Positions 13,042 through 37,431 of a DNA stretch of 64,000 nt are shown here, in pieces (the first letter of the stretch is position 1; each line of letters starts with the position of its first letter). A program made the translations under genes and the position numbers. The stretch comes from an uncultured Eggerthellaceae bacterium (lineage in GTDB: Bacteria > Actinomycetota > Coriobacteriia > Coriobacteriales > Eggerthellaceae). The DNA is taken from NCBI GenBank assembly GCA_910589135.1, contig CAJUSL010000001.1, positions 68,058 to 132,057 on the forward strand. The letters run 5' to 3'. The notes below the pieces were generated by a model that ran no database searches, was not told the DNA's origin, and worked only from the letters and a program-made list of their open reading frames with translations.

Positions 13042-13162
13042 CTCGTCTCCTGTCGTTCGCTGCTTGGCAGCGTTCCATGATACATGCAATGCGCGCGGGC
13101 GGGGACGGAGGGCGTGTCGCTGCCCACACAAGCTACCGTCCAACGCCACGCCAAAGCGCCCA

Positions 13163-13378
13163 ATGCCAAAAATTCGGCCTCCGATGGACAAAAATTGCGG
13201 AAATCGGTGATTTTCGGAGTGTTAGCCATGAAAAAACGCTGTTGCAAAACAGACGGCTGCAAGAAGTCCCAGGTAGAGGCGTTGCGGGCCGTGAGGGCCA
13301 TATGGAGGTCGACCGCAGATGCTTCCAAAAGCACCGATTTCCGCAATTTTTGTCCACAACGGCGCAAGAAAATGGCAT
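13163..13378. repeat. Structured intergenic repeat element, copy A (MITE-like)
   Basis: Perfect 24-bp inverted repeat: GGACAAAAATTGCGGAAATCGGTG (13186-13209) and CACCGATTTCCGCAATTTTTGTCC (13332-13355), separated by 122 bp. Outer ATGCCA/TGGCAT boxes sit at symmetric positions. Related copies lie at 26726-26935 and 39772-39808. Confidence 0.6.
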
Positions 13379-13512: not shown

Positions 13513-16500
13513 ATGGACTCGGTTTCGAAATACGTCAAGGAACCCGACCTCTATCTGTTCGACAGGGGCGACGCGCAGCGCGCTTATTACACTTTCGGCT
13601 GCCACAAGCTGCCGGATGCCGGCCCCGACGCATACCTGTTCGTTGTGTGGGCGCCTCATGCGAAAAGCGTCTCGCTGGTCGGCGAATTCAACGACTGGAA
13701 TGCTGACGTCAACCCCATGCGCCTGGTGCATCCTGGCGTGTGGGCGTGCGTGGCCAGCGGGCTGCGCAACGGCGACGTGTACAAATACCACATCGTGGGG
13801 CCCGACGGAAAGGGCCGCCTTAAGGCCGACCCCTTCGCCTTCCACGCCGAAAACGGGCTGAGCACGGCGTCGAAGGTGTGGAGCCTGGAAGCCTACGACT
13901 GGCACGACGGCGACTACATGGAGGCTCGCCGGGCGCGCAATGCGCAGCGCGAGCCCATCTCTATATATGAGATGCATCTGGGGTCGTGGCGCATTCCTCC
14001 CATGCCAGACGGCCAGCTGCCCGAGCAGGTCAACTTCGAGGACCGGCCGCTTCCCAACTATCGCACGGTGGCCGACCAGCTTGCCGAGTACTGCGTGAAG
14101 ATGGGCTACACGCATGTCGAACCCATGCCTCTCACGGAGTTCCCGTTCCCCAATTCGTGGGGCTATCAAACCACCGGGTACTACGCCATCACGTCGCGCT
14201 ACGGCACGCCCGAGGACTTCATGTACTTCGTCGACACCATGCACGCGCACGGCATCGGCGTGATCATGGACTGGGTGCCTGCGCACTTCCCGCGCGACGG
14301 GTTTGCGCTTGCTGCTTTCGACGGCGCCCCGCTGTACGAGTACGCCGACCCGCGCAAGGGCGAGCACGCCGAATGGGGCACGCTGGTGTTCGACTATGGG
14401 CGGCCGCAGGTGGTCAGCTTCCTGGTGTCGGCCGCCATGCAGCTGTTCGACGTCTACCACATCGACGGGCTGCGCGTGGACGCGGTCAGCTCCATGCTGT
14501 ACCTGGATTACGGGCGCGACGAATGGGTGCCCAACAAGGACGGCGGCAACATCAACCTCGAGGCGGTTGCGTTCCTGCAGAAGCTGAACTCGACCGTGCT
14601 GGAGGCATATCCCGGCGCCATCATGGTGGCCGAGGAGTCCACGGCGTTTCCCATGGTCACGCTGCCGCCGTATATGGGCGGTTTGGGCTTCACGTTCAAG
14701 TGGAACATGGGATTCATGCATGACACGCTGGACTATGCGCAGACCGACCCGCTGTTCCGCGCCGGCAGCCACGACAAGCTCACGTTTTCCATGGACTACG
14801 CCTATAGCGAGGCGTTCGTGCTGGAATACTCGCACGACGAGGTCGTCTATGGCAAGAAGTCCATGGTCGACAAGATGTTCGGCGAATACGGGCAGAAGTT
14901 CGCCACGCTGCGCACGCTGATGGGCTATCAGTTTGCGCACCCTGGAAAAAAGCTTACCTTCATGGGGTCGGAATTCGCCCAGTTCGACGAGTGGAACTTC
15001 AAGGAGGAGCTGGGCTGGAACCTGATGCGCTTCGATGCGCATGCCCAGATGCAGCGATTCTCGGCCGAGCTCAACGCGTTCTATCGGAGGCACGCGTCGT
15101 TGTGGCTGAACGACATGGAGCCGCAGGGGTTCCAGTGGGCGAACCGCAACAACCGCGACCAGAACACGATCGCCTTCCTGCGCGTGGCCATGCCCGAGGC
15201 GGCCGACGCCGACCAGCTGGAAGGCCGAGAGATGTGCGACGTGCTGTGCTGCTGCAACTTCTCGCCCAACCCGGTGCGAGGGCTAGTGGTGGGGCTGCCG
15301 CACGAGGGCACGCTGGTCGAGGCGTTCAACAGCGACGAGATCCGTTTCGGCGGCTCGGGGCTTCACAACCGCACGGCCATCACCACCGAGCGCGGCTCGT
15401 TCGAGGGCCAGCCGTTCCATGCGCGGGTGAACGTTCCGCCGCTCAGCGTGGTGTATTTCGAGTGCGTCAGGGAAAGAAAGGGAGTCTGGCAGATGAACGA
15501 CCACGAGGAATGCGTCGCCATGATCCTGGCGGGCGGCCAGGGAAGCCGCCTTGGCGTGTTGACTCGCTATCGCGCGAAGCCGGCCGTGCCCTACGGCGGC
15601 AAGTACCGGATCATCGACTTCACGCTTTCGAACTGCGCGAACTCCGGCATCGGGGTGGTGGGCGTGCTCACCCAGTACGAGCCGTTCGTGCTGAACAGTT
15701 ACATCGGTACGGGCGCGCCGTGGGATTTGGACTCGCCGTCGGGCGGCGTGTTCGTGCTGTCTCCCTACACGCGCGTGGGCGACGTGGGCAGCTGGTACGC
15801 CGGCACCGCCGATGCCATCTACCAGAACACCAATTTCATCGACCGGTTCACGCCCGACTATGTGGTGGTGCTGTCGGGCGACCACATTTACAAGATGGAC
15901 TACAGCCGCATGGTCGCTTTCCACAAGAGTCACGGCGCCGACGTCACCATTGCGGCCATGCCGGTGCCAATCGAGGAGGCCAGCCGTTTCGGCATCCTTG
16001 CCGCCGACGAGAACGACCAGGTCACCGACTTCGTCGAGAAGCCGGCGAACCCGCCCAGCAACCTGGCGTCCATGGGCGTCTACGTATTCAGCTGGGAGAA
16101 GGCGCGCCGCTACCTGATGCTCGACGCCGACGACCCGCAGAGCAGCCACGATTTCGGCAAGGACGTCATTCCGGCAATGTTGGGTGCCGGCGAGAAGCTG
16201 GTCGCCTACCCGTTCGAAGGGTACTGGCGCGACGTGGGCACGGTGGAGAGCCTGTGGGAGGCCAACATGGACCTGCTTAAGGAGGACCCTCCGCTGAACC
16301 TGGGCGACAATTCCTGGAAGATCTATTCGCGCAACCCGTTCATGCCGGCGGCGCTGGTGGGCGAGGAAAGCGTGTTGGACACATGCCTCGTTCCCGAAGG
16401 GTGCGAGCTTGACGGCGAGGTCGAGCACAGCATCCTGTTCCAAGGCGTGCAGGTGGATGCGGGCGCGAAGGTGAAGGACAGCATCGTCATGCTCAGCTCG

Positions 16501-16710
16501 CGCATCGAGCCAGGCGCCGTGGTGCAGCGCGCCATTCTGTCCGAAGACGTGGTCGTGGGCGCCGGCGCGACGGTCGGTGGCGACGGCGAGCTGTGCGTTG
16601 TGGGAGCCAACGCGACGATCATGGACGGCGCGCGGGTGCTGCCTGGCCAGATGGTCGAGCCGGGCGCAATCGTGGAGGCGTCGCCCGCGGAGGAGGCGCA
16701 GGATGAATAA
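13513..16710 (+). CDS. glgB-glgC: 1,4-alpha-glucan branching enzyme fused in frame to glucose-1-phosphate adenylyltransferase (GlgB-GlgC, 1065 aa)
   Basis: Single uninterrupted ORF. The N-terminal ~655 aa are GH13 branching enzyme ([25 protein letters not shown]). From aa 661 it is GlgC ([35 protein letters not shown]). There is no in-frame stop at the junction. Confidence 0.85.
15493..16710 (+). CDS. glgC: Possible independently translated GlgC moiety (internal start in the glgB-glgC frame)
   Basis: In-frame ATG at 15493 is preceded by AAAGGGAG about 8 nt upstream, and the encoded 405 aa is a complete GlgC. Independent initiation is untested. Confidence 0.4.
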
Positions 16711-17836
16711 CGCGTTCGCAATCGTCTACGCCAAGCAGGGGTCGCAGCAGCTTCGCAACCTCATCGAGTTGCGTTCCACGGCGGCGCTGCCGATTGGCGG
16801 CCGCTATCGCATGATCGACGTGCTGCTTTCCAACATCTCCAACAGCGGCATCCATTCGGTGGGGCTTATCACGCAGCGCAACTACAAGTCGCTGATCGAG
16901 CACATCGGGTCGGGCAAGGAGTGGAACCTTTCCAAGAAGATCGGGGGCCTGCGGCTGCTTCCGCCCTACGATCTGGCGTGCGGCACGGAGATGTACCACG
17001 GGCTGCCCGACGCCATTCTGAGCAAGCGCGACTTCGTGGAGAACCAGCGCTGGCGCTATTGCCTGCTGATGGGCACCGACCAGGTGTACAGTCAGGACTT
17101 CAACGCGATGATGGACCACCATGTGGCCACGGGCGCCGACGTGACGGTGATGTACTCGCGCGACAAGAGCCTGATGAACGACGACACCGACGAGGTTTCG
17201 TACTTCGAGATGGACGGCGACATCGTGCGAAACCTGCTCACCAGTCCCACGGGCAAGGACAACTGCTACGCCAACCTGCGCGTCTGCATCATGGACAAGG
17301 AGCTGCTGATGCGCATGGTGGAGGACGTGTGCGCCGAGGGACGCTACGGGTTCGACCAGGACCTGCTGAAGATGGCCATCCGCGACTACAAGGTGGTGGG
17401 GCTCGAGCACAAGGGTTACGTCGGGCGCGTCACGTCGGTGAAGTCGTACTTCGACCTGAACCAGGACATGCTGGACAAGAGCGTGCGCTACGACCTGTTC
17501 AACCCCGCATTCCCCGTGTACACCAAGACGATGGACGCGCCGCCCACGCGCTTCGGGCGCGGGTGCGACGTGGAGCACAGCCTGTTCGGGAACGGCTGCG
17601 ACATTCAAGGGCACGTGCGCAACAGCATCGTGTTCCGCGGCGTGAAGATCGCGCAGACGGCGCACGTCGAGAACTGCATCATCATGCAGAACTCGCGCAT
17701 CGAGCCGGGCGCCAAGCTGAGCAACATGATCATCGACAAGAACGTGGTGGTAAAGGCGGGCGTGCGGTGCATCGCGGTGCCGTACGACCCGAAGGTCATC
17801 CGCAAGGGTGCCGTGGTCGAAGGGTCGATGGCATGA
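16703..17836 (+). CDS. glgD: Glucose-1-phosphate adenylyltransferase regulatory subunit GlgD
   Basis: [13 protein letters not shown]...[23 protein letters not shown] is NTP-transferase-like but lacks the GGxGxRL motif, as in Firmicutes GlgD. The start overlaps the glgBC stop by 8 nt. Confidence 0.85.
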
Positions 17837-19380
17837 CGGCGCGCAAGCGTGCGAAGGGTGCCGGCCAGGGTGCGGCCGGTGCCGGTGGCAAGAGCGGCGC
17901 GCGTGCGAAGGGCGCGGACAGGCAGGCAGCAAAGCGGGCAGCCGCCTTCGCCGGCGTGCCGCCCGTTCTCATCGTTGCCGCCGAGGCCGCACCGCTTGCC
18001 AAGACCGGCGGCCTGGCCGATGTCGTGGGGGCGCTTCCCAAGTATCTGAAGCGGCTGGGGGTGGACGCGCGCATCATCATGCCGTTCCATCGCGCCATCA
18101 AGGACCGCTATGCAAGCCAGGCGATGCATCTATTCGACTATCTGGCGGGCGATCAGTGGGAGAGCCGGTTCGTCGGCATCGACAAGCTCGAGCTGGACGG
18201 CACCGTGTACTACTTCGTGGACAACGAGCACTACTTCGGCGGGCCCATCTACACCGGCAACAACTTCGAGGGGCAGCAGTACGCCTTCTTCACGCAGGCG
18301 GTGTGCGACGTCATTCCCAACCTCGACTTCCAGCCGGGCATCGTGCACTGCAACGACTGGCACACGGCCATGGTGCCGTTCAAGCTGAAGGCGCGTGCCG
18401 CGCGCATGGGCACGACGCCGCCCGCGACGCTGCTCACCATCCACAACCTGGCGTTCCAGGGCACTTTCGGCGACGACTTGCAGGCCATCGCCATCGGGGC
18501 GGACGAGCGCGCGTATGCCTGCGACTTGGGGTGCTGGAACATGATGAAGGCCGGCATCGACACGGCCGACCGCGTGAACACCGTCAGCCCCACGTACGCC
18601 GCCGAGATCACCACGCACGAGTTCGGCGAGGGGCTGGAATACGACCTGCGCTCGGTGCGCGACAGGGGGCGGCTCTCTGGCATCCTGAACGGCATCGACA
18701 CCGATACGTGGAACCCGGCGACCGATGGCTGCCTTGAGCAGACGTACTCGCTGGACGACCTGGCGGGCAAGGCTGCCTGCAAGCGCGCGCTGTTGGAGGA
18801 GCTGGGTCTCGAGCCCGACATGGACGCGCCGCTTATCGCCATGGTCGGCCGCCTTACGCCGCAGAAGGGCATCGGCATTGCGGCGCATGTCATCGGCACG
18901 TTGGTGCACGAGGGCGCCATGTTCGTGGTGCTGGGGTCGGGCGACTCCGACCTTGAGTGGCAGATGCGCGAGGCCGAGAACCGCTACAAGGGACGCGTGT
19001 GTTCCTACATCGGCTACAACGGCGACCTGTCGCACCGTATCTACGCGGCGTCCGATTTCTTTCTGATGCCGTCGGCGTTCGAACCGTGCGGCATATCGCA
19101 GATGATCGCCATGCGCTATGGAAGCCTGCCCATCGTGCACGAGACAGGCGGCCTGAAAGACACCGTGCAGTCGTTCAACGAGTTCACGGGCGAGGGGTGC
19201 GGCTTCTCGTTCTCGCGGTTCGATGGCGACGACGCCGTAGATGCCTGCCGGAAGGCACTTGCCGTTTTCGGCGACGACGCCGTGGTGCGGCAGCTTGTGC
19301 GCAATGCCATGACGCGCGATTTCAGCTTCGACCGCTGCGCCCGTTCCTACGCCGAGCTGTATCGGTCGATGGTTCCCTAG
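17833..19380 (+). CDS. glgA: Glycogen synthase (GT5) with a ~35-aa basic N-terminal extension
   Basis: AAEAAPLAKTGGLADVVGALP (KTGGL motif) and the C-terminal SAFEPCGISQMIAMRYGSLPIVHETGGLKDTV. ATGA overlap with glgD. Confidence 0.9.
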   Translation: MTARKRAKGAGQGAAGAGGKSGARAKGADRQAAKRAAAFAGVPPVLIVAAEAAPLAKTGGLADVVGALPKYLKRLGVDARIIMPFHRAIKDRYASQAMHLFDYLAGDQWESRFVGIDKLELDGTVYYFVDNEHYFGGPIYTGNNFEGQQYAFFTQAVCDVIPNLDFQPGIVHCNDWHTAMVPFKLKARAARMGTTPPATLLTIHNLAFQGTFGDDLQAIAIGADERAYACDLGCWNMMKAGIDTADRVNTVSPTYAAEITTHEFGEGLEYDLRSVRDRGRLSGILNGIDTDTWNPATDGCLEQTYSLDDLAGKAACKRALLEELGLEPDMDAPLIAMVGRLTPQKGIGIAAHVIGTLVHEGAMFVVLGSGDSDLEWQMREAENRYKGRVCSYIGYNGDLSHRIYAASDFFLMPSAFEPCGISQMIAMRYGSLPIVHETGGLKDTVQSFNEFTGEGCGFSFSRFDGDDAVDACRKALAVFGDDAVVRQLVRNAMTRDFSFDRCARSYAELYRSMVP

Positions 19381-19404
19381 CGCTGGCTTACTGGCGGCGA
19401 AGCC

Positions 19405-20682
19405 CTACTCGATTGCGCCCACCGGCTCGGGGTTGGCGAGCTTCTTGTTCATCGTGCGCTTGAACGCGATTGCGACGACGAGCGCCACGCAGGCGAGGGA
19501 GCCCATGACAATCGCGGCGACCGAGTAGCCCGAGGTGTCGAGCACGCCGCCGACGATGGCGGGGATGGCCAGCGTTCCCAGGTTCTGGCCCAGCACCACC
19601 AGCGCGACGGCCGCGCCCACGGTGTGGGACGAGCGTGCCACGAAGGGCGGGATGGCGAAGAAGAGCGCCGGCGCCGCACCCAGGAAGCAGCCGCCCAGGA
19701 ACCCGACGGCATACGTGACGGGCATCGAGGCATCCATGTTGAACCACGCGAACAGGAACACGGCGCACAGGGCGATGTTGACGATCAGCACGAGCATCTT
19801 GTCCTTTGCGCGCGCGAAGATCACGCCGATGACCACCGAGCCCACCAGCATGCCGAACGATGCCAGCATCGATGTCAGGTTCGCCTCAGTGTAGGGGCGG
19901 TCGAGTTCGACGTTCAGGTAGGTGACCGTAAAACTGTTGAACGCGTCGGTCGCGCCGCCAACCAGGAAGAACATGAAGGCGGTCAGGATGGCGAAAGGCG
20001 CGCAGTAGCCCCACAGCAGGCCGTGCTTCGGAATCTTCGGGGAAGAGCCGTCGGCAGGGGCGCTTGCGGCGGCCGCGTCGACGGCGACTGCGCCCGCGTC
20101 TGCACGCGGCGCGCATTCGGGCATCTTCACGCAGATGACGACCAGCAGCAGCGCCAGCACCGTGGACACCAGCGAAAAGACCCACATGCCGGTCCAGTCG
20201 GTTGCGGCCAGAATCGGGTTGGCGATGCCGGTGGAGAGCAGCATGCCAAGGCCAACGTTCGCGCCCCACACGCCGCTCGCGATGCCGCGCTTCTTCGGCT
20301 CGTACCACGCTGCAATGATCACGGGGCCGGCCGTCATGGTGACGCCGTAGCCGGCTCCTTCCAGGACGCGCGTGGCAAGCAGTGCTGCGTCGTTGGTCGC
20401 GAACAGGGCGATCACGTTGCCCAGGACCGACGCCAACAGCGCGACGCTGACCACCTTGCGGGCGCCGAGCCGGTCGATCAGCGTGCCGCCGAACACCATG
20501 GCCATGACGAGCGCCGATGCGGAAAAGGCCGTCATGAGCAAGCCTTGCATCGTGTACGAGATCCCGAGGGCATCGATCATCGACGGCTGGGAGGGAGGAA
20601 CCTTCCCGTATTGCGTCGAAATGAGAATGCTTGCGACGATGATGGCCCAGACCGGAATCCAGGCGGCGACCTTCTTGGCCAT
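19405..20682 (-). CDS. MFS transporter, paralog of the 25073..26311 transporter
   Basis: About 12 TM segments. The N-terminus KKVAAWIPVWAIIVASILISTQYGKVPPSQPSMIDALGISYT closely matches 25073..26311. Start ATG 20682 has GGAGGAG 8 nt upstream. Confidence 0.85.
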   Translation of the reverse strand: MAKKVAAWIPVWAIIVASILISTQYGKVPPSQPSMIDALGISYTMQGLLMTAFSASALVMAMVFGGTLIDRLGARKVVSVALLASVLGNVIALFATNDAALLATRVLEGAGYGVTMTAGPVIIAAWYEPKKRGIASGVWGANVGLGMLLSTGIANPILAATDWTGMWVFSLVSTVLALLLVVICVKMPECAPRADAGAVAVDAAAASAPADGSSPKIPKHGLLWGYCAPFAILTAFMFFLVGGATDAFNSFTVTYLNVELDRPYTEANLTSMLASFGMLVGSVVIGVIFARAKDKMLVLIVNIALCAVFLFAWFNMDASMPVTYAVGFLGGCFLGAAPALFFAIPPFVARSSHTVGAAVALVVLGQNLGTLAIPAIVGGVLDTSGYSVAAIVMGSLACVALVVAIAFKRTMNKKLANPEPVGAIE

Positions 20683-20851
20683 GGCGACCACTCCTCCCCC
20701 GGGATGACGATAGCATCAACGGATGCCGTGCATAGGAGCATGGTTGCGCATATGGAAGGCGCGCGCATCCACCGCGCGTCGCTATATTGCGGCGATTCCG
20801 GCGGTATGAGGGGGAGTATTATGCGCTTACGCTTGGAGAACGCTGCCGCGC

Positions 20852-22321
20852 TTACTGCTGGAAGTCTTCCTCCACCATGTCGATCAGCTCTTGCTGCGAA
20901 TGGATGTCCACCTTCCGGTAGATGTGGTAGATGTGCGTCTTGACGGTGTGCGTGGATATGTAGAGCTCGTCGGCGATGTAGCCGTAGCTGCGCCCGCGCG
21001 CCAGCATCATGAAGATGCGCTCCTCCTGCTTCGTCAGCTTGTGCTGCTCGGAAATGTCGCGGCATCTGTCCTTCCACGCATCCTGGAACTGCGTGGACTT
21101 CGCGACGCCCGCTTCCGACTCCTCGCCGCCGCCCGTGATGGTCATGTACAGGATGATCATCATCACCAGCACCACCGACGATACGCCGAACCCGGCGTTG
21201 AACCGCTCGGAGCCCAGCAGCGCGAACAGCACGTAGCCGATGGCCCAGCCCAGGAAGATGCCCAGAAAGTTCACGAACGTGGCGGTGCTGGTGTAACGGA
21301 ACAGCCCCAGCCGCCGGTCGCGCACCTCGTCGGCCAGGTCGCCCCACCCGATGGCGTCGAAGCAGGTGAACCCGAACACGGCGAACGACAGGAACACCAC
21401 CTGCAGCGTGGTGTCAACGTAAGGGAAGGGCAGCATCGCCACGGCCGCCAGCATCAGCAGCACGCGGCGGAACTTGTCGGCGTCGATGCGCATCTTGAAG
21501 CAGAACGTGCACGCCGCGAGGAAGGCGGCCGAGAACAGGATGGACAGCACGATGACGAAGATCAGGTGGTTCACGCACGCCAGGTACAGAACCGCGTACG
21601 ACACCACGCCGAACGACACCGTATATATAAGTGTGAGCGGAACGAAGTTGCGCAGCTCCGAGAAGCGCGCCTTCAGCGAATCCGCGTGCGTCTTGGCCTC
21701 GGCGCCTTGGGCGTGCTGGTCGCTGGAGGCGTCCATCCTGCGGCCGGCAGCGTAGGTGAAGACGCACGCGAGCATCGGCAGCACCATCACGCCCGCGACC
21801 ATCAGCGTCGGCGCGAACAGTTGCGGAACGGCGTACAGCGCGGCCGCCACCAGGAAGCTGAGCGAGATGCACCGCGAGATTTTCGCGCGTTTCAGCCAGA
21901 TGAGGAACCGGATGGTCTTCATCAGCACGAGCGACGACGCCAGGCCCGACACCGCCCAAAGCACGGCCACCGCGAAGAACGGCAGGGGGATACCCAGCGT
22001 GACGAGCAGCGCGGGGATGCCGTTCAGGCAGCTCGTCAGCGCCAGGATGACGAACCCGCGCAGCCCCTTGAAGAAAGCCTCGGCCTTCTCGGGCATCAGG
22101 CTGACGGCAAGGGTCGTCAGCGCCGACGTTCCGGCGAAGATGACCAGCAGCAGGCAGTATCGCACTATGCCTTCGTTGCCGAACGGGTTCAGCGCGACCG
22201 AGGAAAACGTCGCGAAGATCCACGCCCAGTATGAGCCCAGCGAGATGATGCCGAACACCAGGATCGTCGAGTCGTTCCCGAACAGGTGGTCGTCGCGTTC
22301 CGGGGTATTACCTTTGGTCAT
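20852..22321 (-). CDS. Polytopic membrane LuxR-family transcriptional regulator
   Basis: About 10 predicted TM helices, then the C-terminal HTH LTKQEERIFMMLARGRSYGYIADELYISTHTVKTHIYHIYRKV. Start ATG 22321 is preceded by GGAGGAGAAAG. Confidence 0.85.
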   Translation of the reverse strand: MTKGNTPERDDHLFGNDSTILVFGIISLGSYWAWIFATFSSVALNPFGNEGIVRYCLLLVIFAGTSALTTLAVSLMPEKAEAFFKGLRGFVILALTSCLNGIPALLVTLGIPLPFFAVAVLWAVSGLASSLVLMKTIRFLIWLKRAKISRCISLSFLVAAALYAVPQLFAPTLMVAGVMVLPMLACVFTYAAGRRMDASSDQHAQGAEAKTHADSLKARFSELRNFVPLTLIYTVSFGVVSYAVLYLACVNHLIFVIVLSILFSAAFLAACTFCFKMRIDADKFRRVLLMLAAVAMLPFPYVDTTLQVVFLSFAVFGFTCFDAIGWGDLADEVRDRRLGLFRYTSTATFVNFLGIFLGWAIGYVLFALLGSERFNAGFGVSSVVLVMMIILYMTITGGGEESEAGVAKSTQFQDAWKDRCRDISEQHKLTKQEERIFMMLARGRSYGYIADELYISTHTVKTHIYHIYRKVDIHSQQELIDMVEEDFQQ

Positions 22322-22349
22322 ACTTTCTCCTCCATAGCCTGCTACAGGG

Positions 22350-22367
22350 CGTATTCGCATAAATACG
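22350..22367. promoter_or_regulatory. Candidate operator palindrome in the luxR / Mo-enzyme divergent promoter region
   Basis: CGTATT-CGCATA-AATACG (6-bp arms). Two GATTCAC direct repeats lie nearby, at 22379 and 22400, 21 bp apart. Confidence 0.3.
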
Positions 22368-22471
22368 GACGTTTCCCCGATTCACGCGAACGAAGCACTG
22401 ATTCACCATGTGGTCAGCTTACAGGACGTCGTTTCTGCGCCCTGGGACTTCAAAGGAAGAAGGAGGATGCA

Positions 22472-24724
22472 ATGAGCGAAAAGAGGGAATACACCCTCGT
22501 CGATCACAAGGAGCCGTATCGCTACGACGACAACGGCCTTCATGTGACGCGCGGCAGTGCCTGGTCGGGACCGGGTTGCCATCTGGGGTGCGGGGTGCTT
22601 ATGTACACCGACGACGATGGCAAGCTGGTCAAGGTTGAGGGAGACCCTGAGAACCCCTTCAACCAGGGGCGGCTGTGTTGCCGCTGCCTCGCGCTTCCGG
22701 AGGTAGTATATCACGAGGATCGCGTGCTCCATCCCATGAAGCGCGCCCGCGAAGACCGCGGCAAGGACAAATGGGAGCGCATCTCTTGGGACGAGGCGTA
22801 CGAGATGGTCACGTCGCGGTTCTTGGAAATCAAGGAGAAGTACGGCCCGGAATGCATCGCGTTCTATTCCGGCACCGGCCGTGACATCGGGCAGTACATC
22901 ACGCGTTTGGCCTGGGGATTCGGAAGCCCGAACTTCGTCTTCGCGATGAGCGGCCAGTCGTGCTATTCGCCGCGCGTCGCCGGCTGCTTCTCGAACACGG
23001 GCGCGTTCTGGCTGGGCGACTACTCCCAGCAGTTCGCCGACCGCTACGACGACCCGCGCTGGGAATGCCCCGAGTACGTGGTGGTGTGGGGCAACAACCC
23101 GCTGGTGTCGAACTCGGACGGGCTGTACGGCCACTGGGTGATCGACGTGATGAAGCGCGGCGCCAAGCTGATCGTCATCGACCCGCGCCTCACGTGGCTG
23201 GGGGCGAAGTCCGAGCAGTTCCTGCAGGTGCGTCCCGGCACCGACGCCGCGCTTGCGCTGGGCATGATCAACTTCATCATCGAAGAGGACCTGTACGACC
23301 ACGAGTTCGTGGACCTGTGGTGCTACGGCTTCGAAGAGCTGGCCGAGCGCGCCAAGGAGTACCCGCTTGACTACGTGGAGGAGGTCACGTGGATTCCGCG
23401 CGACAAGATCGAGCGCGCCGCCCGCAGCATCGCGCAGGCGAAGAACGCCATCCTGCAGTGGGGCGTTGCGATCGACCAGACCAAGGAGACCATCCCCACG
23501 GCGCAGGCGCTGCTGTCGCTGTTCGAGATCACGGGCCACATGGACAAGCCCGGCGCCATGGTGCCGCCGCCGTCCATCCTGTACTACGCAGGCGGCTGGG
23601 GCGAGGAATTCCTGACGCCCGAGCAGAAGGCCAAGCTGATCGGCCTGAAGGAATACCCGCTCATCCAGATGGGCTTCCAGGAGGCCGTCACCGACGAGTA
23701 CATCAAGGCGCTGGAAACGGGCGAGCCCTATCGGTTCCGCGCGGCGTGGATGCAGACCACGAACCCCTTGGTGTGCACGGGCGTCGACCCGAAGCGCTCG
23801 CTGGCGGCGCAGAACAATCTGGAATTCATCGTGTACGTCGACCTGTTCATGACGCCGACCGCCATGGCGCTGGCCGACGTGTTCCTGCCCGCATGCACCT
23901 ATCCCGAGCGTGACGGCATCCGCATCGGCGACGGCATGCAGCGCGGCGAGACCATCAACAAGGTGATCGAGCCTTTGGGCGAGAGCAAGTCCGACATGGA
24001 GATCTGCCTGGAGGTGGGCAAGAGGATCGCCCCCGAGGCATGGCCGTGGGAGACGGTGGAGGACATGTTCTCCAGCATCCTGGAGGAGACGGGCTACGAC
24101 TTCGAGGAGATGCAGAAGATCGCGCCGGCCTACATGCCGTTTGAGTACCACCAGCACGAGAAGGGCCTTCTGCGCAGCGACGGACAGGTCGGCTTCGGTA
24201 CGCCCACCGGCCGCATCGAGCTGTGGTCGAACTTCTACAACACGTGCGACTTGGACCCGCTGCCCTATTTCGAGGAGCCCTCGCCCGGCCCGGTGTCCAC
24301 CCCCGAGCTGCTGGACGAGTACCCGCTGGTGCTCACGACCGGTGCGCGCATCTGGTCGATGTTCCATTCCGAGCACCGGCAGATTCCGCACCTGCGCGCC
24401 CTGCATCCGGATGCCATCATCCAGGTGAATCCGAAGACGTGCCGCGAGTACGGCGTGAAGCACGGCGACTGGGTGTGGGTGGAGAACCAGCGAGGCCGCT
24501 GCAAGCGCCGCGTCATCGAGACGCCCGTCGTGGAGGAGCGCGTATGCTCCACCGACCATGCGTGGTGGCTTCCCGAAGCGCCGGCCGAGATGGAGGACGG
24601 CCTGTACGGCATGTGGGACCTGGACGTGGGGAACCTCATCGAGTACAAGTGCGGCAAGTCCGGTTTCGGCGCCAATTACAAGACGCTGCTGTGCAAGATC
24701 TACAAGGTTGAGGAAGGTGAATAG
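22472..24724 (+). CDS. Molybdopterin (bis-PGD) oxidoreductase catalytic subunit, no Tat signal (cassette 1)
   Basis: 750 aa. N-terminal Cys group GPGCHLGCGVLMY...GRLCCRC (FeS site). DMSO-reductase-family blocks are present throughout. SD AGGAGGA lies upstream of ATG 22472. No RRxFLK motif or hydrophobic signal region. Confidence 0.9.
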   Translation: MSEKREYTLVDHKEPYRYDDNGLHVTRGSAWSGPGCHLGCGVLMYTDDDGKLVKVEGDPENPFNQGRLCCRCLALPEVVYHEDRVLHPMKRAREDRGKDKWERISWDEAYEMVTSRFLEIKEKYGPECIAFYSGTGRDIGQYITRLAWGFGSPNFVFAMSGQSCYSPRVAGCFSNTGAFWLGDYSQQFADRYDDPRWECPEYVVVWGNNPLVSNSDGLYGHWVIDVMKRGAKLIVIDPRLTWLGAKSEQFLQVRPGTDAALALGMINFIIEEDLYDHEFVDLWCYGFEELAERAKEYPLDYVEEVTWIPRDKIERAARSIAQAKNAILQWGVAIDQTKETIPTAQALLSLFEITGHMDKPGAMVPPPSILYYAGGWGEEFLTPEQKAKLIGLKEYPLIQMGFQEAVTDEYIKALETGEPYRFRAAWMQTTNPLVCTGVDPKRSLAAQNNLEFIVYVDLFMTPTAMALADVFLPACTYPERDGIRIGDGMQRGETINKVIEPLGESKSDMEICLEVGKRIAPEAWPWETVEDMFSSILEETGYDFEEMQKIAPAYMPFEYHQHEKGLLRSDGQVGFGTPTGRIELWSNFYNTCDLDPLPYFEEPSPGPVSTPELLDEYPLVLTTGARIWSMFHSEHRQIPHLRALHPDAIIQVNPKTCREYGVKHGDWVWVENQRGRCKRRVIETPVVEERVCSTDHAWWLPEAPAEMEDGLYGMWDLDVGNLIEYKCGKSGFGANYKTLLCKIYKVEEGE

Positions 24725-24726
24725 GC

Positions 24727-25062
24727 GTGGCTGAATACGGACTGCTGATAGATTACGATTGGTGCACGGGCTGCCACACGTGCGAGGTGGCATGCCAGAT
24801 GGAGCACTCGCTTCCGCCCGACCAGTGGGGCATCAAGCTGACCGAGGTGGGCCCGTGGGAATATGCCCCCGAGAAGTGGCAGTACGCCTACATGCCCGTG
24901 CCGACCGACCAGTGCGACCTGTGCGCGCGTCGCACCGCCGAGGGAAAGCTTCCCACGTGCGTGCACCATTGCCAGGCCCAGTGCATTCATTACGGGCCGC
25001 TGGACGAGCTCGCCAAGAAGCTTCCCGGGAAGACCAAGCAAACGCTTTTCAGCCTGAGATAG
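24727..25062 (+). CDS. Small 4Fe-4S ferredoxin-like electron-transfer subunit (111 aa)
   Basis: CTGCHTCEVAC (Cx2Cx2Cx3C) plus CDLC...C..HHC...C. Nine Cys in total, enough for about two clusters. Paralog at 57632..57958. Confidence 0.85.
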   Translation: MAEYGLLIDYDWCTGCHTCEVACQMEHSLPPDQWGIKLTEVGPWEYAPEKWQYAYMPVPTDQCDLCARRTAEGKLPTCVHHCQAQCIHYGPLDELAKKLPGKTKQTLFSLR

Positions 25063-25072
25063 GGGGCGTCAT

Positions 25073-26311
25073 ATGAGCAAGGTGAAGAAAATAATGCCGT
25101 GGGTGCCGGTGTGGGCGATCATCGTCGCGAGCATTCTGGTGAGCTTCGAATACGGCAAGGTGCCGCCAGCTGCTCCCAGCATGATCGAGGTGCTGGGCAT
25201 CTCGTATACGACGCAGGGGCTGCTGATGACGATGTTCTCCATCGCGGCCGTCGTGATGGGGCTCATCGGCGGCACGATGATCGACCGGCTGGGCGCGCGC
25301 AAGGTCGTGAGCGTTGCGCTTGCGCTGACCATCGTCGGCAACGTGGTCGGGCTGTTCTGGACGAGCGATGCGGGGCTGCTGGTCACGCGCGTGCTGGAAG
25401 GCTTGGGCTACGGCGCCACGATGACCGCCGGGCCCGGCGTGATCGCCGCGTGGTACGAGCCCAAGAAGCGCGGCCTTGCCAACGGCGTGTGGGGCGCGAA
25501 CGTGGGCGTCGGCATGATGATCTGCACGATGTCGGCCACTCCCATCATGGAGTCCAGCGGCTGGTCGGGCATGTGGATCTTCGGCCTGGTGGGCGCCATC
25601 CTGGCGTTTCTGCTGGTCGCCATCTTCGTGTGCATGCCGCCCGAGGGTGAGCGTAAGGATGCGATGGACCTGCCGCCGGCCACCGACGCCGACAAGAGCC
25701 ATGGCGTGCTGTGGGGATACCTCGCCCCGCTGCCCGTGCTCGCCGCGGTGATGTTCTTCCTGGTGGGCGGTGCGACCGACGCGTTCAACGCGTTCACCAT
25801 CACGTACCTGAACCTGGAGCTCGGCGAGGCCGAGAGCATGGCGAACATGACCGCCACCATCGCCTCGTTCGGCCTGCTGGTCGGCGCGGTCATCATGGGC
25901 TTCCTGTTCGCGAAGGTGCGCGACAAGGGCATGGTGCTGCTGGTCAACATCGCGCTGTGCGCCATTGCTCTGTTCGCGTGGTTCAACCTTGACCTGTCGC
26001 CCGAGATGATGTGCGTGGTCGGGTTCTTCGTGGGCTGCTTCCTTGGCGCTGCGCCGACCGCGTTCTTCGCAGTGGCGCCCATGGCCGCCCGCTCGCCTGG
26101 GACCATCGGCGCCGCCACCGGCATGGTGGTGCTGGGCCAGAATGCCGGCACGCTGTTGATTCCCACGGTTGTGGGCATGATTCTGGACGCTGCCGGATAC
26201 GGCGCCGCTGCCATGTTCATGGGCGGCATCAGCGTGGCGGCCGCGCTCATCTGCATTGCGTTCCGCGCGCTGTACAAGAAGCATGTCGCGGTCACCCCGG
26301 AGGCGCAGTAG
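25073..26311 (+). CDS. MFS transporter (cassette 1)
   Basis: 412 aa, about 12 TM segments, contiguous with the two oxidoreductase subunits. Confidence 0.9.
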   Translation: MSKVKKIMPWVPVWAIIVASILVSFEYGKVPPAAPSMIEVLGISYTTQGLLMTMFSIAAVVMGLIGGTMIDRLGARKVVSVALALTIVGNVVGLFWTSDAGLLVTRVLEGLGYGATMTAGPGVIAAWYEPKKRGLANGVWGANVGVGMMICTMSATPIMESSGWSGMWIFGLVGAILAFLLVAIFVCMPPEGERKDAMDLPPATDADKSHGVLWGYLAPLPVLAAVMFFLVGGATDAFNAFTITYLNLELGEAESMANMTATIASFGLLVGAVIMGFLFAKVRDKGMVLLVNIALCAIALFAWFNLDLSPEMMCVVGFFVGCFLGAAPTAFFAVAPMAARSPGTIGAATGMVVLGQNAGTLLIPTVVGMILDAAGYGAAAMFMGGISVAAALICIAFRALYKKHVAVTPEAQ

Positions 26312-26323
26312 CCAAGCTGCAGC

Positions 26324-26399
26324 AGCCGGTCTTGCGTGCTGCGGCCGGGTTCGCGTGCGGTAGCCGGCCTTGCGCGAGGCAGCCGGACTCGCGTGCGGG
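26324..26399. repeat. Four degenerate tandem 19-bp repeats
   Basis: Units AGCCGGTCTTGCGTGCTGC, GGCCGGGTTCGCGTGCGGT, AGCCGGCCTTGCGCGAGGC and AGCCGGACTCGCGTGCGGG, starting 12 nt after the MFS stop. The 19-bp period is not a multiple of 3. Confidence 0.5.
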
Positions 26400-26609
26400 T
26401 TGTTCGTGGGGTTTCCGCCGGCGCATGTAAGGGACATGACCCCCCCGGAGGGGGCTGCCGGATGGCGGCCTCCTTTTGCACGGTTGCGGTTACGGTTGGT
26501 TGCGCGGGCGCTTTCGCGTCCGCGCGGTCCTTCGCGCCGCATTGTCCGCTGCTCGTTCGCGAGCGAGCTCAACGTCATGCGCGTGCTTGTGCTGCCGCAG
26601 CACCTGACA

Positions 26610-26673
26610 GCCTTGTGCCGCCGCAGCCTGTGCCTTGTGCCTTGTGCTTTATGTTGCCGCAGCCTGTGCCTTG
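26610..26673. repeat. 28-bp direct repeat (2 copies) containing GCCTTGT heptamer reiterations
   Basis: GCCGCAGCCTGTGCCTTGTGCCTTGTGC occurs at 26610-26637 and 26646-26673. Confidence 0.6.
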
Positions 26674-26725
26674 TGCCTTGTGCCGCGTTCCTCCATGACC
26701 TCTTGCGTCAATCAATTGGCGGAAT

Positions 26726-26935
26726 ATGCCAAAAATGTGCCGTTTCGGGTCATTTCGCGACTGTTTCCTCTCGGGCATAGAAGTGGCATAGATCCCTGAA
26801 CTGGGCATTCTTGCAGTCTTGTTGCAGCTGCGGCTGTTCCAAGGAGAAAAAACGGTCGATTTCGGCTCAAAAACGACCCGAAACGGCAATTTTTTGGCAT
26901 CAATGCCTAGTTTTCTTGCGCAGGCTGCCAAAAGG
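26726..26935. repeat. Structured intergenic repeat element, copy B (inverted relative to copy A, composite)
   Basis: Arms ATGCCAAAAATGTGCCGTTTCGGGTC (26726-26751) and GACCCGAAACGGCAATTTTTTGGCAT (26875-26900) are complementary at 24 of 26 positions and separated by 123 bp. The core shares CTGCAAGAA(G/T)(T/G)CCCAG with copy A in reverse orientation. An extra ATGCC..TTTTCTTGCGC..TGCCAAAA unit follows. Confidence 0.55.
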
Positions 26936-27008
26936 GCTCTCTAGAGCAAGATTACGCTGTCGATCGAGGCCGGCGTCTGACCAAAGTGCGGCCGCAAGGA
27001 GGATCATC

Positions 27009-27206
27009 GTGTGCTATCCCTGTAAATGCTGCGGCAAATGCAAGCCCAAGATCGCCATGGGCCTGTGTCCGATATGCCGCACGCAAAACGACGAGGATGC
27101 CCGCACCTGCGAAGAGTGCGGATTCAGCTTCCCTCCCAAGCCGGGCACGCCCGGCGGCATCGTGGAGAGCAAGCCGCCGGTAGGAATGCGGGTACGGAAA
27201 CGGTAA
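27009..27206 (+). CDS. Small Cys-rich zinc-ribbon protein (65 aa), candidate gene
   Basis: GTG at 27009 lies 5 nt after the strong SD AAGGAGGA. The product is CYPCKCCGKCKPKIAMGLCPICRTQNDEDARTCEECGFSF (CxxC...CxxC ribbon plus an extra Cys cluster). The longer ORF-track version (26811) runs through the repeat element. Confidence 0.5.
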   Translation: MCYPCKCCGKCKPKIAMGLCPICRTQNDEDARTCEECGFSFPPKPGTPGGIVESKPPVGMRVRKR

Positions 27207-27266
27207 AGGTTCAATAGCTGTGTAGTGTTGCTGTGCTCCTTGTACGCGTGTTTGCATGAAGATAGA

Positions 27267-29978
27267 ATGGGGCGAACCATCGATGCTTCGACGGAGGCCC
27301 CGGAGAAGGCCGACAGCAACACCCCGGTGCAGGCCGGGCCCTTGCAGGCGAGCCGTCGCGCATCTCGCACTTCGCACGACGTCTCGAAAACCTCCACGAC
27401 GAAGGTGGGCACATTGGACCATTCATCAGACAGCCCGTTGGGCACTCCATTGGGCAATTCGCCAGACAGCACAGCGGGCGACGCACGCATGCAGGCCGAC
27501 GTCGAATCCGTGCGGCAGAACATTGTCGACATGGTTCGCCACAAGTTCGCGATACCCATCGAGGAGGCAACGCCGAACCAGGTTTACGAGGCGGTGGGCC
27601 TGTGCGTCCGCAACGACGTCCTGGACGCCTGGATTTCCGGGCGCACGGCCACGCAGCGCACCGGCGCGAAATGCCTCATCTACCTGTCGGCCGAGTTCCT
27701 CATCGGGCGCCTGCTGACGAACAACCTCATCAACATCGGCAAGCGCGACATCTACCGCGATGCACTTGCCCAGCTGGGCTACTCCCTCGACGCCATCGAG
27801 GAATGCGAAAGCGACCCCGCGCTTGGCAACGGGGGCCTCGGGCGCCTGGCCGCGTGCTTCCTGGACAGCCTGGCGACGATGGGCCTTCCCGCCATGGGGT
27901 ATGGCATCCGCTACGAGCACGGCTTCTTCCGCCAGCAGCTCGTCGACGGCCAGCAGGTGGAAGTCCCCGACACCTGGATGCTTCATGGCGACGTGTGGGA
28001 AACCGAGCGCAGCGACCGCATCTTCGAGGTGCGGTTCGGCGGCACGGTCGAGGAGAAGTGGGGCGGCGACGGCAACCTGTGCGTCGAGTACCACGACTAC
28101 CAGTCCGTTCTGGCGAAGCCTTACGACATGCCCGTCGTCGGGTTCCATTCGCCCTATATCGGCACGCTGCGGCTGTGGGCCGCCGTGGCGCCGAAGCAGC
28201 TCGACCTGGTCGAGTTCAATCGCGGCGACTACACGAACGCGGCGGCCGACCGCGAGCTCGCGGAATCCATCTCGAAGGTGCTGTACCCCGAGGACAGCCA
28301 TCCGCGCGGCAAGGAACTGCGCCTGCGTCAGCAGTATTTCCTGATTTCGGCCACCATGCAGCAGGTGGTCGACTCGCACAAGCGGCGCAACGGCGACCTG
28401 CGCACGCTGCCCGACACCATCGCCGTGCAGATCAACGACACGCACCCGACGCTGGCCATCCCCGAGCTCATCCGCATCCTCATCGACAACGAGGGCTTTT
28501 CCTGGGAAGAGGCCGTCGACGTCGCCGAGCGCACGTTCAACTACACGAATCACACCATCATGCCCGAGGCGCTGGAGAAGTGGCCCGCGTCCCTCATGCA
28601 GACGTTGCTTCCGCGCATCTACCGCATCATCGAGACCATCGATGCGCGTCTGCGCGACCGCATCTGGCAGCTGCATCCCGGCGATTCCGAGCGCATCGCG
28701 CGCATGGCCATCATCAACGACGGCCAGGTGCGCATGGCGAACCTGTGCGTGCTGATGAGCGGGCACGTCAACGGCGTCTCGCAGTTGCATGGGCGCCTGT
28801 TGAAGACGCAGCTGTTCCGCGACTTCTACACCACCAATCCCGACCGATTCCTGGGAATCACCAACGGCATCACGCAGCGACGGTGGCTGGCGGTGGCCAA
28901 CCCGGGGCTTGATGCGCTGGTGAACGACACTATCGGCGGCGGGTTCATGAGCGATTGGACGAAGCTGGCCGAACTTGCGCCCTATGCCGACGATCCCGTC
29001 TTCCGCGAGCAGTTTGCCCAGGTCAAGGCAGAGAACAAGCGCACGTTCGCAGAATGGCTCGAACGCACGCACGGCCTTGCGATCGACCCCGCGTCGTTCA
29101 TGGACGTGCAGGCGAAGCGGCTGCACGAGTACAAGCGGCAGCTGCTGAAGGCGCTGCATATCCTCAGCGTGTACGACGGCATCGTGGAGGGCCGCATCAC
29201 CGACATGCCGAAGACCACGTTCGTGTTCGCCGCGAAGGCCGCGCCGGGGTACTGCCGTGCCAAGGACATCATTCGTCTGATCAGCGCCATTTCGAACCTC
29301 GTGGCCTCAGACGAGCGCACGCGCGACGTCATCTCGGTGGTGTTCGTGCCGAACTACGACGTGAGCACGGCCCAGCATCTCATTCCTGCCACCGACCTGT
29401 CCGAGCAGATTTCAACCGCCGGACTGGAGGCGTCGGGCACGGGCAACATGAAGTTCATGATGAACGGCGCGCTGACCATCGGCACGATGGACGGCGCCAA
29501 CATCGAGATGTCCGAGCAGGTGGGGCCGGAGAATATGTTCATCTTCGGGGCGCGCGTCGAAGACCTCGACCGCATGCGCGAGGAAGGCACGTACGACCCG
29601 CAGGCACTTATGCGCGCCGACGCCCGGCTCGAGAAGGCGCTTGCCCGTCTGGTTGACGGAAGCCTGCCCACGGCCGACGGCAGCCGTTTCGAGGACCTGC
29701 ATCACTCGCTGGTGCAGCCCGGTGGCGACCAGTATTTCGTGCTGCACGACTTCGACGCGTACGACAAGGCGTTCTGGGAGGCGCAGCGCGTGTATGGCGA
29801 CCGCGACGAGTGGCTGAGGCGTGCGGTGCTGAATACGGCGCGCTCGGGCTACTTCAGCTCCGACCGCACCATCGCGGAATACAACGACGCCATCTGGCAT
29901 CTTGAGCCGGTGGGGGTCGAAGAGGATGCGCAGAGCGCCGAAGGTGCATCGGCGGAACGCGTGCATGGCGAGGCGTAG
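27267..29978 (+). CDS. glgP: Glycogen/maltodextrin phosphorylase (GT35)
   Basis: PLP-Lys motif EASGTGNMKFMMNGALTIGTMDGANIEM, and conserved blocks LGNGGLGRLAACFLDS. The start is uncertain: ATG 27267 or ATG 27489. The first ~75 aa are low-complexity. Confidence 0.9.
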   Translation: MGRTIDASTEAPEKADSNTPVQAGPLQASRRASRTSHDVSKTSTTKVGTLDHSSDSPLGTPLGNSPDSTAGDARMQADVESVRQNIVDMVRHKFAIPIEEATPNQVYEAVGLCVRNDVLDAWISGRTATQRTGAKCLIYLSAEFLIGRLLTNNLINIGKRDIYRDALAQLGYSLDAIEECESDPALGNGGLGRLAACFLDSLATMGLPAMGYGIRYEHGFFRQQLVDGQQVEVPDTWMLHGDVWETERSDRIFEVRFGGTVEEKWGGDGNLCVEYHDYQSVLAKPYDMPVVGFHSPYIGTLRLWAAVAPKQLDLVEFNRGDYTNAAADRELAESISKVLYPEDSHPRGKELRLRQQYFLISATMQQVVDSHKRRNGDLRTLPDTIAVQINDTHPTLAIPELIRILIDNEGFSWEEAVDVAERTFNYTNHTIMPEALEKWPASLMQTLLPRIYRIIETIDARLRDRIWQLHPGDSERIARMAIINDGQVRMANLCVLMSGHVNGVSQLHGRLLKTQLFRDFYTTNPDRFLGITNGITQRRWLAVANPGLDALVNDTIGGGFMSDWTKLAELAPYADDPVFREQFAQVKAENKRTFAEWLERTHGLAIDPASFMDVQAKRLHEYKRQLLKALHILSVYDGIVEGRITDMPKTTFVFAAKAAPGYCRAKDIIRLISAISNLVASDERTRDVISVVFVPNYDVSTAQHLIPATDLSEQISTAGLEASGTGNMKFMMNGALTIGTMDGANIEMSEQVGPENMFIFGARVEDLDRMREEGTYDPQALMRADARLEKALARLVDGSLPTADGSRFEDLHHSLVQPGGDQYFVLHDFDAYDKAFWEAQRVYGDRDEWLRRAVLNTARSGYFSSDRTIAEYNDAIWHLEPVGVEEDAQSAEGASAERVHGEA

Positions 29979-29984
29979 CCCCCT

Positions 29985-34802: not shown

Positions 34803-34850
34803 TGCAACTTCCCCCGTAGCCTGCAATGAGTCGGGCCAGCAACAGACTAT

Positions 34851-37427: not shown

Positions 37428-37431
37428 TCGC

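Follow-up and report, generated by a model that had tools for sequence, protein, structure and literature searches.

What can a molybdenum enzyme that lacks both an export signal and a membrane anchor be doing when it is encoded beside a small ferredoxin, two related transporters and a polytopic regulator? The question is raised by a cassette of genes at positions 19405-26311 of a 64,000-nucleotide stretch of DNA from an uncultured Eggerthellaceae bacterium (contig CAJUSL010000001.1), the whole of which is referred to below as the window. Here we argue that the cassette probably encodes a two-subunit molybdenum reductase system of the cytoplasm that is induced by its substrate and belongs with the catechol dehydroxylases of the Gordonibacter type. 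The argument starts from what could be demonstrated, namely the gene content, the lack of a Tat (twin-arginine translocation) signal and of an anchor, the clade in which the enzyme falls, its cofactor ligands, the conservation of the module and purifying selection on its genes.

The enzyme, its relatives and its location

Three Pfam domains define the 750-residue catalytic subunit (Molybdop_Fe4S4, 1.8e-10; Molybdopterin, 4.2e-40; Molydop_binding, 4.6e-15), and its AlphaFold model (pLDDT 80, pTM 0.85) has the fold of the dimethyl sulfoxide (DMSO) reductase family. The best solved relative by sequence is acetylene hydratase (2e7z; E 1.2e-93, 318 bits), with polysulfide reductase second and formate dehydrogenases following, and in a fold search the model matched acetylene hydratase with TM-scores of 0.85/0.87 and a root-mean-square deviation of 3.3 Å. 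An earlier reading of this DNA from its letters (the original prediction) had named kinship with both acetylene hydratase and pyrogallol transhydroxylase; the former stands, and the latter is weak (E 2.2e-13, fold rank 37). The match to ethylbenzene dehydrogenase is likewise weak (E 3.8e-16, fold rank 45). No NCBIfam model reaches its curated cut-off for the enzyme (two of the scores are 300 bits where 666 are required and 261 where 694 are required), the partial matches being to models of formate dehydrogenase, PhsA and DmsA.

Bit scores roughly twice that to acetylene hydratase were obtained with two characterised enzymes of Gordonibacter pamelaeae 3C, Cldh (44.7% identity, 631 bits) and Dodh (42.7% identity, 591 bits), the sequences of which were taken from the alignment in an eLife 2020 supplement (PMC7028382). 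Most of the characterised Gordonibacter-type enzymes are 33-52% identical among themselves (JACS 2025 Table S5, PMC11887054), and the 43-45% identity of the window enzyme to Cldh and Dodh falls inside this range. In a neighbour-joining tree Cldh and Dodh lie in the same large clade as the enzyme, with acetylene hydratase (34.5% identity in the trimmed alignment) outside it. The enzyme sits there in an orthogroup with a 96%-identical relative from a metagenome-assembled genome (MAG), Raoultibacter (81%), two further MAG lineages (76% and 73%) and G. urolithinfaciens (72%), and this orthogroup is nested in a wider Gordonibacter/Adlercreutzia set at 60-67%. One comparator on the original list, Ucd, had to be discarded as an example of a bis-pyranopterin guanine dinucleotide enzyme, Ucd/Ucdh being an enzyme of the xanthine oxidase family. 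Taken together, the sequence comparisons support membership of the enzyme in the Gordonibacter-type dehydroxylase clade. A plasmid origin of the cassette was considered and rejected, as no plasmid record exceeds 34% identity.

The arrangement of the cassette also has published counterparts. Gordonibacter enzymes have been described as smaller, Tat-less and probably soluble, with a small 4Fe-4S protein as partner and transporters of the major facilitator superfamily (MFS) encoded next to them, and the dehydroxylases were placed away from pyrogallol transhydroxylase (eLife 2020, PMC7028382). The term 'Gordonibacter-type' was later formalised for enzymes of two cytoplasmic subunits (JACS 2025, PMC11887054), and MFS transporters and LuxR regulators are reported as common neighbours in the urolithin paper. 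Every element of the layout has thus already been published, and the layout of the cassette is known. The proposed resemblance to a cytoplasmic clade including Gordonibacter dehydroxylases is borne out by this architecture and by the scores of 631 and 591 bits to Cldh and Dodh against 318 bits to acetylene hydratase. The cassette is composed of the following features.

19405-20682, minus strand: MFS_A, a 425-residue major-facilitator transporter and paralogue of MFS_B, 3' of the regulator on the same strand; Pfam MFS_1
20852-22321, minus strand: polytopic LuxR-type regulator of 489 residues, with an N-terminal membrane domain and a C-terminal GerE/LuxR helix-turn-helix (HTH)
22322-22471, no strand assigned: divergent intergenic region of 150 bp, with the presumed regulated promoter and the Shine-Dalgarno sequence of the enzyme gene
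22472-24724, plus strand: catalytic subunit, a 750-residue Tat-less molybdoenzyme of the bis-molybdopterin guanine dinucleotide (bis-MGD) type, assigned from Pfam, structure match and tree
24727-25062, plus strand: ferredoxin (electron-transfer subunit) of 111 residues, with Fer4 motifs and eight conserved cysteines
25073-26311, plus strand: MFS_B, a 412-residue transporter encoded by the final gene of the operon; Pfam MFS_1

The five genes were recovered where they had been predicted. Their base composition and Pfam matches support them, and a second, independent gene caller reports the same five on a public contig of identical sequence, CAQAUR010000003.1 (GCA_948756605.1). The window has a G+C content of about 63%, and real reading frames were picked out by their third-position G+C (GC3). 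The closest named genomes are labelled 'uncultured Eggerthellaceae bacterium', and some of them come from MGBC-labelled MAG sets. The start of MFS_A was corrected to the ATG at 20682 (425 residues), and that of the regulator was set at the ATG at 22321 (489 residues) because M1 is nearly invariant in 31 orthologues. The ferredoxin gene starts 2 nucleotides past the stop codon of the enzyme gene and MFS_B starts 10 nucleotides past the ferredoxin stop, a packing that makes these three genes look like one operon, from which the regulator gene diverges over the 150-bp spacer. The genes of the cassette are under purifying selection, with ratios of non-synonymous to synonymous substitution rates, measured against the 96%-identical relative, of 0.035 for the enzyme, 0.069 for the ferredoxin, 0.059 for MFS_B and 0.132 for the regulator.

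That the enzyme lacks a Tat signal, as had been claimed, was confirmed at the level of sequence, and a cytoplasmic location is predicted for it. Its residues 1-80 contain no RR pair, the N-terminus is hydrophilic (among residues 1-35, 13 are D, E, K, R or H), and a Shine-Dalgarno sequence, AAGGAGG, lies 6 nucleotides before the ATG at 22472. A Tat signal at a start further upstream had been named in advance as the finding that would overturn the cytoplasmic assignment, and was looked for. The open frame does extend upstream to a GTG at 22286 and includes the residues 'GRRF'. This extension has a GC3 of 0.48 against 0.90 within the enzyme gene, it overlaps the first codons of the regulator on the opposite strand, and a hydrophobic core is missing from it. 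Stop codons close the frame just 5' of the conserved start, M-(S/E)-(E/D)-K-R-E-Y, in relatives that include Raoultibacter and Gordonibacter. 'GRRF' was accordingly rejected as a hidden Tat motif, on the grounds of the missing hydrophobic region, the non-coding composition and the in-frame stops of the relatives. Kyte-Doolittle analysis found no hydrophobic segment in either the enzyme or the ferredoxin, and the claim that no anchor is encoded holds to the extent of 10 kb on either side, where no NrfD/DmsC-type gene is present and the flanking genes are those of glycogen metabolism.

The module is conserved well beyond the window. Enzyme and ferredoxin genes are adjacent in every related locus examined (about 40 loci), and the enzyme, ferredoxin and MFS_B genes, together with a transmembrane (TM) LuxR regulator, are kept among orthologues across at least four lineages. 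In Raoultibacter timonensis and R. massiliensis the order on one strand is LuxR, an MFS_A-like transporter (70% identity), the enzyme (81%), the ferredoxin (76-79%) and an MFS_B-like transporter (67%). A MAG lineage designated P0005 has a divergent LuxR, an unrelated MFS, the enzyme (76%), the ferredoxin and an MFS_B-like transporter (62%), and Gordonibacter has an unrelated MFS, a short-chain dehydrogenase of 443 residues, the enzyme (72%), the ferredoxin, an MFS_B-like transporter (66%) and a LuxR (43%). Orthologues of the regulator, at 41-54% identity, adjoin the orthologous enzymes, and those of MFS_B, at 62-67% identity, lie 3' of the ferredoxin gene in Raoultibacter, Gordonibacter and the P0005 lineage. 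The orthogroup thus defined spans the uncultured lineage, Raoultibacter and Gordonibacter, and has no characterised member in any of them. The dehydrogenase gene of Gordonibacter lies directly 5' of the 72% orthologue (8437-9768 in locus L045 and 5283-6614 in locus L046) and is absent from the window cassette; such a neighbour could hint at the substrate class.

Cofactor sites, regulator and transporters

The iron-sulfur (Fe-S) cysteine group ascribed to the enzyme is present in altered form. Residues C36, H37, C40, C69, C72 and C164 are invariant across 125 homologues; three canonical cluster ligands are among them, the canonical position of the first Fe-S cysteine is G/A33, and an extra invariant cysteine, C72, follows C69. 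The site reads GPG-C-H-x-G-C ... C-x-x-C rather than C-x2-C-x3-C ... C. Residues were paired with those of acetylene hydratase through a HMMER alignment, with the hydratase numbered Cys9, Cys12, Asp13, Cys16, Cys46 and Cys141. On this numbering the presumed cluster ligands Cys12, Cys16 and Cys46 are matched by C36, C40 and C69, what we take to be the metal ligand, Cys141, is matched by C164, and the invariant His37 occupies the position of Asp13, presumably the catalytic residue of the hydratase. The three canonical ligands and C72 could between them bind a [4Fe-4S] or a [3Fe-4S] cluster.

The ferredoxin has eight cysteines in 4Fe-4S (Fer4) motifs, CxxCxxCxxxC and CxxCx11CxxxC, which are kept in 45 homologues, and we read it as carrying two [4Fe-4S] clusters. 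It aligns with residues 1-46 and 112-148 of PsrB and skips the middle of that four-cluster protein. In subunits of the DmsB/FdnH type, a single ferredoxin domain with two clusters is built from the first and last cysteine groups, and it is with this domain that the subunit docks on the catalytic one. The domain that leads to the membrane anchor is missing from the window ferredoxin, which fits the absence of an anchor gene.

The regulator is, as originally described, polytopic and divergent from the enzyme, with 10 strongly hydrophobic segments by Kyte-Doolittle and a GerE/LuxR HTH at residues 428-483 (Pfam E 8.4e-14). LuxR proteins with 10-12 TM segments are substrate-specific activators that are widespread in Coriobacteriia, three of those from Eggerthella lenta activate their dehydroxylase genes, and the mechanism of the family was called unclear by its discoverers (Dong et al. 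2022, PMC9734109). An AlphaFold (AF2) model of the window regulator, computed with 31 orthologues (pLDDT 82, pTM 0.74), has about 12 helices, which fall into two groups with a loop of low confidence (201-213) between them, followed by a linker and the HTH. When the PDB was searched with it by Foldseek, the best 50 hits were without exception MFS transporters, among them VMAT2, NorA, FLVCR1, MCT1, SfMCT, OxlT, ferroportin and sugar porters, with E values of about 4e-5 to 3e-4, 393-491 aligned columns and TM-scores by target of 0.49-0.64. In 6 of the 31 orthologues Pfam MFS_1 matches locally, across the final two helices (the best at 35.4 bits against a cut-off of 33.4). The window regulator itself has no Pfam MFS_1 match and does not contain MFS motif A, and a profile search of PDB sequences returned only HTH domains.

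An MFS fold is accordingly a prediction for the membrane domain, with moderate support overall and a thin signal in sequence. Whether that domain is a degenerate MFS transporter of 6+6 helices that has lost motif A, and would serve as a transporter-derived substrate receptor fused to a LuxR HTH, is in our judgement an even call. Derivation from the MFS genes of the cassette itself was examined as a candidate and rejected (hhalign probability 0.6%). Neither MFS nor transporters are mentioned by Dong et al. 2022 (PMC9734109), and a search of the accessible literature found no paper that ties the 10-12-TM LuxR regulators to MFS. If a transporter origin were true of the whole family, the model would be one in which ligand binding in a central cavity and a rocker-switch movement control the HTH, and the cassette would hold three MFS-fold proteins with different jobs.

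Between regulator and enzyme, positions 22322-22471 were taken as non-coding on the basis of a GC3 of 0.46. The region holds a 20-nucleotide direct repeat (22366-22385 and 22387-22406, spaced 21 nucleotides), both copies of which end in GATTCAC. It was dropped as a candidate operator, being present in one copy in the 96% relative and in none in Raoultibacter, Gordonibacter and locus L047. A scan for sigma-70 consensus sequences and terminators gave nothing above background, and an Rfam scan of the cassette matched no family, molybdenum cofactor riboswitches included.

The two transporters are closely related, as had been noted (59.6% identity between MFS_A and MFS_B), and both match Pfam MFS_1 (E 2.5e-47 and 1.1e-46, respectively). 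Motif A is GGTLIDRLGARK in MFS_A (residues 65-76) and is kept in MFS_B (residues 66-77). Only MFS_B is orthologous in all of the lineages examined, and it is on this ground regarded as the core transporter; a second MFS of some kind recurs among the orthologous loci, and the two may form the importer/exporter pair originally suggested. The duplication that gave rise to MFS_A and MFS_B appears to predate the split from Raoultibacter. The best NCBIfam matches of both transporters are weak and below cut-off, and are to organic-anion and aromatic-acid symporter families, which gives a faint hint of an anionic aromatic substrate.

Reaction type and substrate

What reaction is catalysed, which way the transporters work, whether the regulator activates the operon and where the electrons come from are matters that we infer from the sequence and from published relatives. 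Gordonibacter-type enzymes are reported to be induced by their own substrate, and they have been purified as two-subunit proteins, for which methyl viologen serves in the assay; one of them, Gp Hcdh, supports ATP formation despite having two subunits only and no membrane anchor, and hydrogen and pyruvate-derived reduced ferredoxin have been linked to Gordonibacter dehydroxylation. According to the model that we favour, a small aromatic compound with hydroxyl groups, the likeliest being a catechol or a polyphenol metabolite, would be sensed by the membrane-embedded LuxR regulator, the cytoplasmic HTH of which would activate the divergent promoter and so switch on the operon of enzyme, ferredoxin and MFS_B. 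An MFS transporter would import the compound, and the alpha-beta enzyme would pass two electrons by way of the two [4Fe-4S] clusters and the non-canonical site to the cysteine-ligated Mo-bisMGD, where one hydroxyl group of the substrate would be removed as water. The product would then leave the cell, possibly through the second MFS.

Several points weigh against this reading. The neighbour-joining tree carries no bootstrap values, and among the characterised enzymes of this type identity was measured to Cldh and Dodh. The first canonical Fe-S cysteine is missing from the enzyme, and a 2024 review states that Gordonibacter-type catalytic subunits lack an Fe-S motif. The electron donor of the soluble enzyme type is left unresolved in the literature. 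A 2024 review also includes a non-catechol, corticoid substrate in molybdenum-dependent dehydroxylation by gut Eggerthella and Gordonibacter. Finally, the field transfers a substrate only at an identity of at least 75-80% to a characterised enzyme, a rule that the window enzyme fails at 44.7% to Cldh and 42.7% to Dodh. Identities so far below that level allow no substrate to be assigned, in agreement with the original statement that the substrate cannot be read from the sequence.

The 72% orthologue of Gordonibacter was compared with the characterised enzymes. At its locus there is a single molybdoenzyme gene and no Eah decarboxylase, and it is for this reason neither the eam cluster nor the Eldh1/2 pair; its length is 750 residues against 770 for Gp Hcdh. 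Published quantitative PCR primers for Gs Vadh, Eldh1/2 and cldh have no exact match in the loci fetched, where the fuzzy hits carry three mismatches, and the closest paralogue of Gs 28C, WP_114600135.1, differs by accession from Eadh1-3 (WP_114602618.1, WP_114601864.1 and WP_158048609.1). By elimination on locus, length, primers and accessions, the 72% orthologue is not a characterised enzyme.

Among other explanations, the same architecture could act on a non-catechol substrate, by reducing some other functional group or removing it reductively, for example the hydroxyl of an alpha-ketol, as in corticoid 21-dehydroxylation, or on another xenobiotic. Only about a dozen of hundreds of family members have been characterised, the reviewed molybdenum-dependent dehydroxylation of corticoids takes place in Eggerthella and Gordonibacter, and the short-chain dehydrogenase upstream of the 72% Gordonibacter orthologue hints at an alcohol or ketone substrate; however, every Gordonibacter-type enzyme characterised so far has a catechol or a polyphenol for its substrate and the window cassette is without a dehydrogenase gene, and we regard a non-catechol substrate as unlikely. 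A classical respiratory reductase, with DMSO, trimethylamine N-oxide (TMAO), polysulfide, thiosulfate, nitrate or a similar acceptor, is very improbable. Such an enzyme would account for the partial NCBIfam matches to formate dehydrogenase, PhsA and DmsA and for the rank of polysulfide reductase as second-best solved relative by sequence, but all of those NCBIfam matches are far below cut-off (300 against 666 and 261 against 694 bits), there is neither a Tat signal nor an anchor, the Fe-S partner has two clusters and not four, and the enzyme falls in the clade of Cldh and Dodh.

Two readings without a net reduction of the substrate have scarcely any weight in our estimate. A non-redox hydratase would agree with the first rank of acetylene hydratase among solved relatives, in sequence as well as in fold, and with retention of the metal-ligand cysteine as C164. 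It is opposed by the invariant His37 at the position that we take to be the catalytic Asp13, by the place of acetylene hydratase outside the enzyme clade in the tree, and by the translationally coupled two-cluster ferredoxin, universally conserved beside the gene; with this partner always adjacent in the loci compared, a redox enzyme is favoured over a hydratase. A hydroxylase or transhydroxylase of aromatic compounds, oxidative or redox-neutral and resembling ethylbenzene dehydrogenase or pyrogallol transhydroxylase, is just as hard to credit: these enzymes belong to the same superfamily, and a sequence does not tell which way electrons flow, but the similarity is weak (E 2.2e-13 for the transhydroxylase and 3.8e-16 for the dehydrogenase, fold ranks 37 and 45), and the literature sets the dehydroxylases apart from the transhydroxylase (PMC7028382).

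A cytoplasmic catechol dehydroxylase system stays the probable explanation. Genomes of gut Eggerthellaceae encode tens of such enzymes each, about a dozen of which have known substrates, and each characterised enzyme acts on a specific dietary, host or drug-derived compound. The Gordonibacter members make the present orthogroup experimentally reachable with published expression tools. The cassette touches two questions of the field, namely the non-canonical Fe-S site and the predicted MFS fold of the regulator, the latter with a bearing on how substrates are sensed.

Surroundings of the cassette and comparison with known systems

The cassette lies within a glycogen gene cluster (13513-33434). 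Upstream of it are a gene for a 1065-residue fusion of branching-enzyme domains (CBM_48, alpha-amylase) with NTP_transferase and hexapeptide domains, a second NTP_transferase (GlgC/D-like) gene and GlgA; downstream are glycogen phosphorylase and an amylase/4-alpha-glucanotransferase. The junctions between cassette and glycogen genes are the same in close relatives (loci L003, L008 and L049), and, when GlgA was used to scan metagenomes for signs of an insertion into a glycogen operon, a single close contig came up, likewise arranged, all other hits being relatives of at most 51% identity. A non-coding stretch of about 700 bp past MFS_B contains G+C-rich tandem repeats (26318-26398 and 26610-26686; 19 nucleotides in 4.3 copies and 36 nucleotides in 2.4 copies), with no Rfam match.

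Two more molybdoenzyme cassettes are found in the window. One, at 54163-59263, has the same architecture, with a divergent LysR regulator (54163-55071, minus strand), a Tat-less-looking catalytic subunit (about 55318-57621) that is 46% identical to the cassette enzyme, a 114-residue ferredoxin that is 61% identical to the ferredoxin described here, and an unrelated MFS (57977-59263). The other, at 34902-39565, encodes an 841-residue enzyme nearest to the solved DMSO/TMAO reductases and without an Fe4S4-domain hit, then a cysteine-rich multi-cluster Fe-S protein of about 245-260 residues (37393-38172) and an MFS (38201-39565); upstream, on the other strand, is a gene for a 450-residue protein with no Pfam match and no hydrophobic segment (33474-34826). 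Elsewhere, the window encodes a 1250-residue protein with DUF7601 (1493-5245), a 1018-residue hybrid histidine kinase that carries both a dCache and a response-regulator receiver domain (7667-10723), an arylamine N-acetyltransferase of the xenobiotic type just upstream of the glycogen genes (12220-13191, minus strand; Acetyltransf_2, E 1.7e-33), one tRNA (51551-51623) and two adjacent, partly overlapping open reading frames that each match the GmrSD_N restriction-endonuclease domain (61454-63663).

Of the systems already described, the Gordonibacter-type enzymes (Cldh/(-)-Eddh, Dodh, Gp Hcdh, Gs Vadh, (+)-Eldh1/2 and Eadh1-3) offer the fullest parallel: in both cases a Tat-less bis-MGD subunit of about 750-800 residues is encoded next to a small Fe-S subunit, an anchor is lacking, MFS and LuxR genes lie nearby, and the closest relative that is not a dehydroxylase is acetylene hydratase. 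The window enzyme differs from them in belonging to a separate orthogroup, whose uncharacterised members in Raoultibacter, Gordonibacter and MAGs are 72-81% identical to it, and it comes from an uncultured member of the Eggerthellaceae that belongs to neither of the two genera commonly cited. With acetylene hydratase of Pelobacter acetylenicus it shares the aligned metal-ligand cysteine and three of the four cluster cysteine positions, and it departs from that enzyme in having His37 in place of what we take to be Asp13, no first cluster cysteine, the added C72 and a ferredoxin partner.

The Eggerthella-type dehydroxylases (Dadh, Cadh and El Hcdh) and the PsrABC and DmsABC systems belong to the same superfamily, and the cassette ferredoxin is homologous to the first and last cysteine groups of PsrB and DmsB; regulation by a TM-LuxR protein, presumed for the cassette, is shared with the Eggerthella enzymes. 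Those systems own a Tat signal, a catalytic subunit of more than 1000 residues, a four-cluster beta subunit and an anchor, whereas the window cassette has none of these. The regulator, for its part, resembles DadR, HcdR and CadR (Dong et al. 2022) in its C-terminal GerE HTH, its polytopic N-terminal domain and its molybdoenzyme neighbour, and is set apart by a membrane domain without detectable sequence likeness to anything characterised, for which an MFS fold is predicted.

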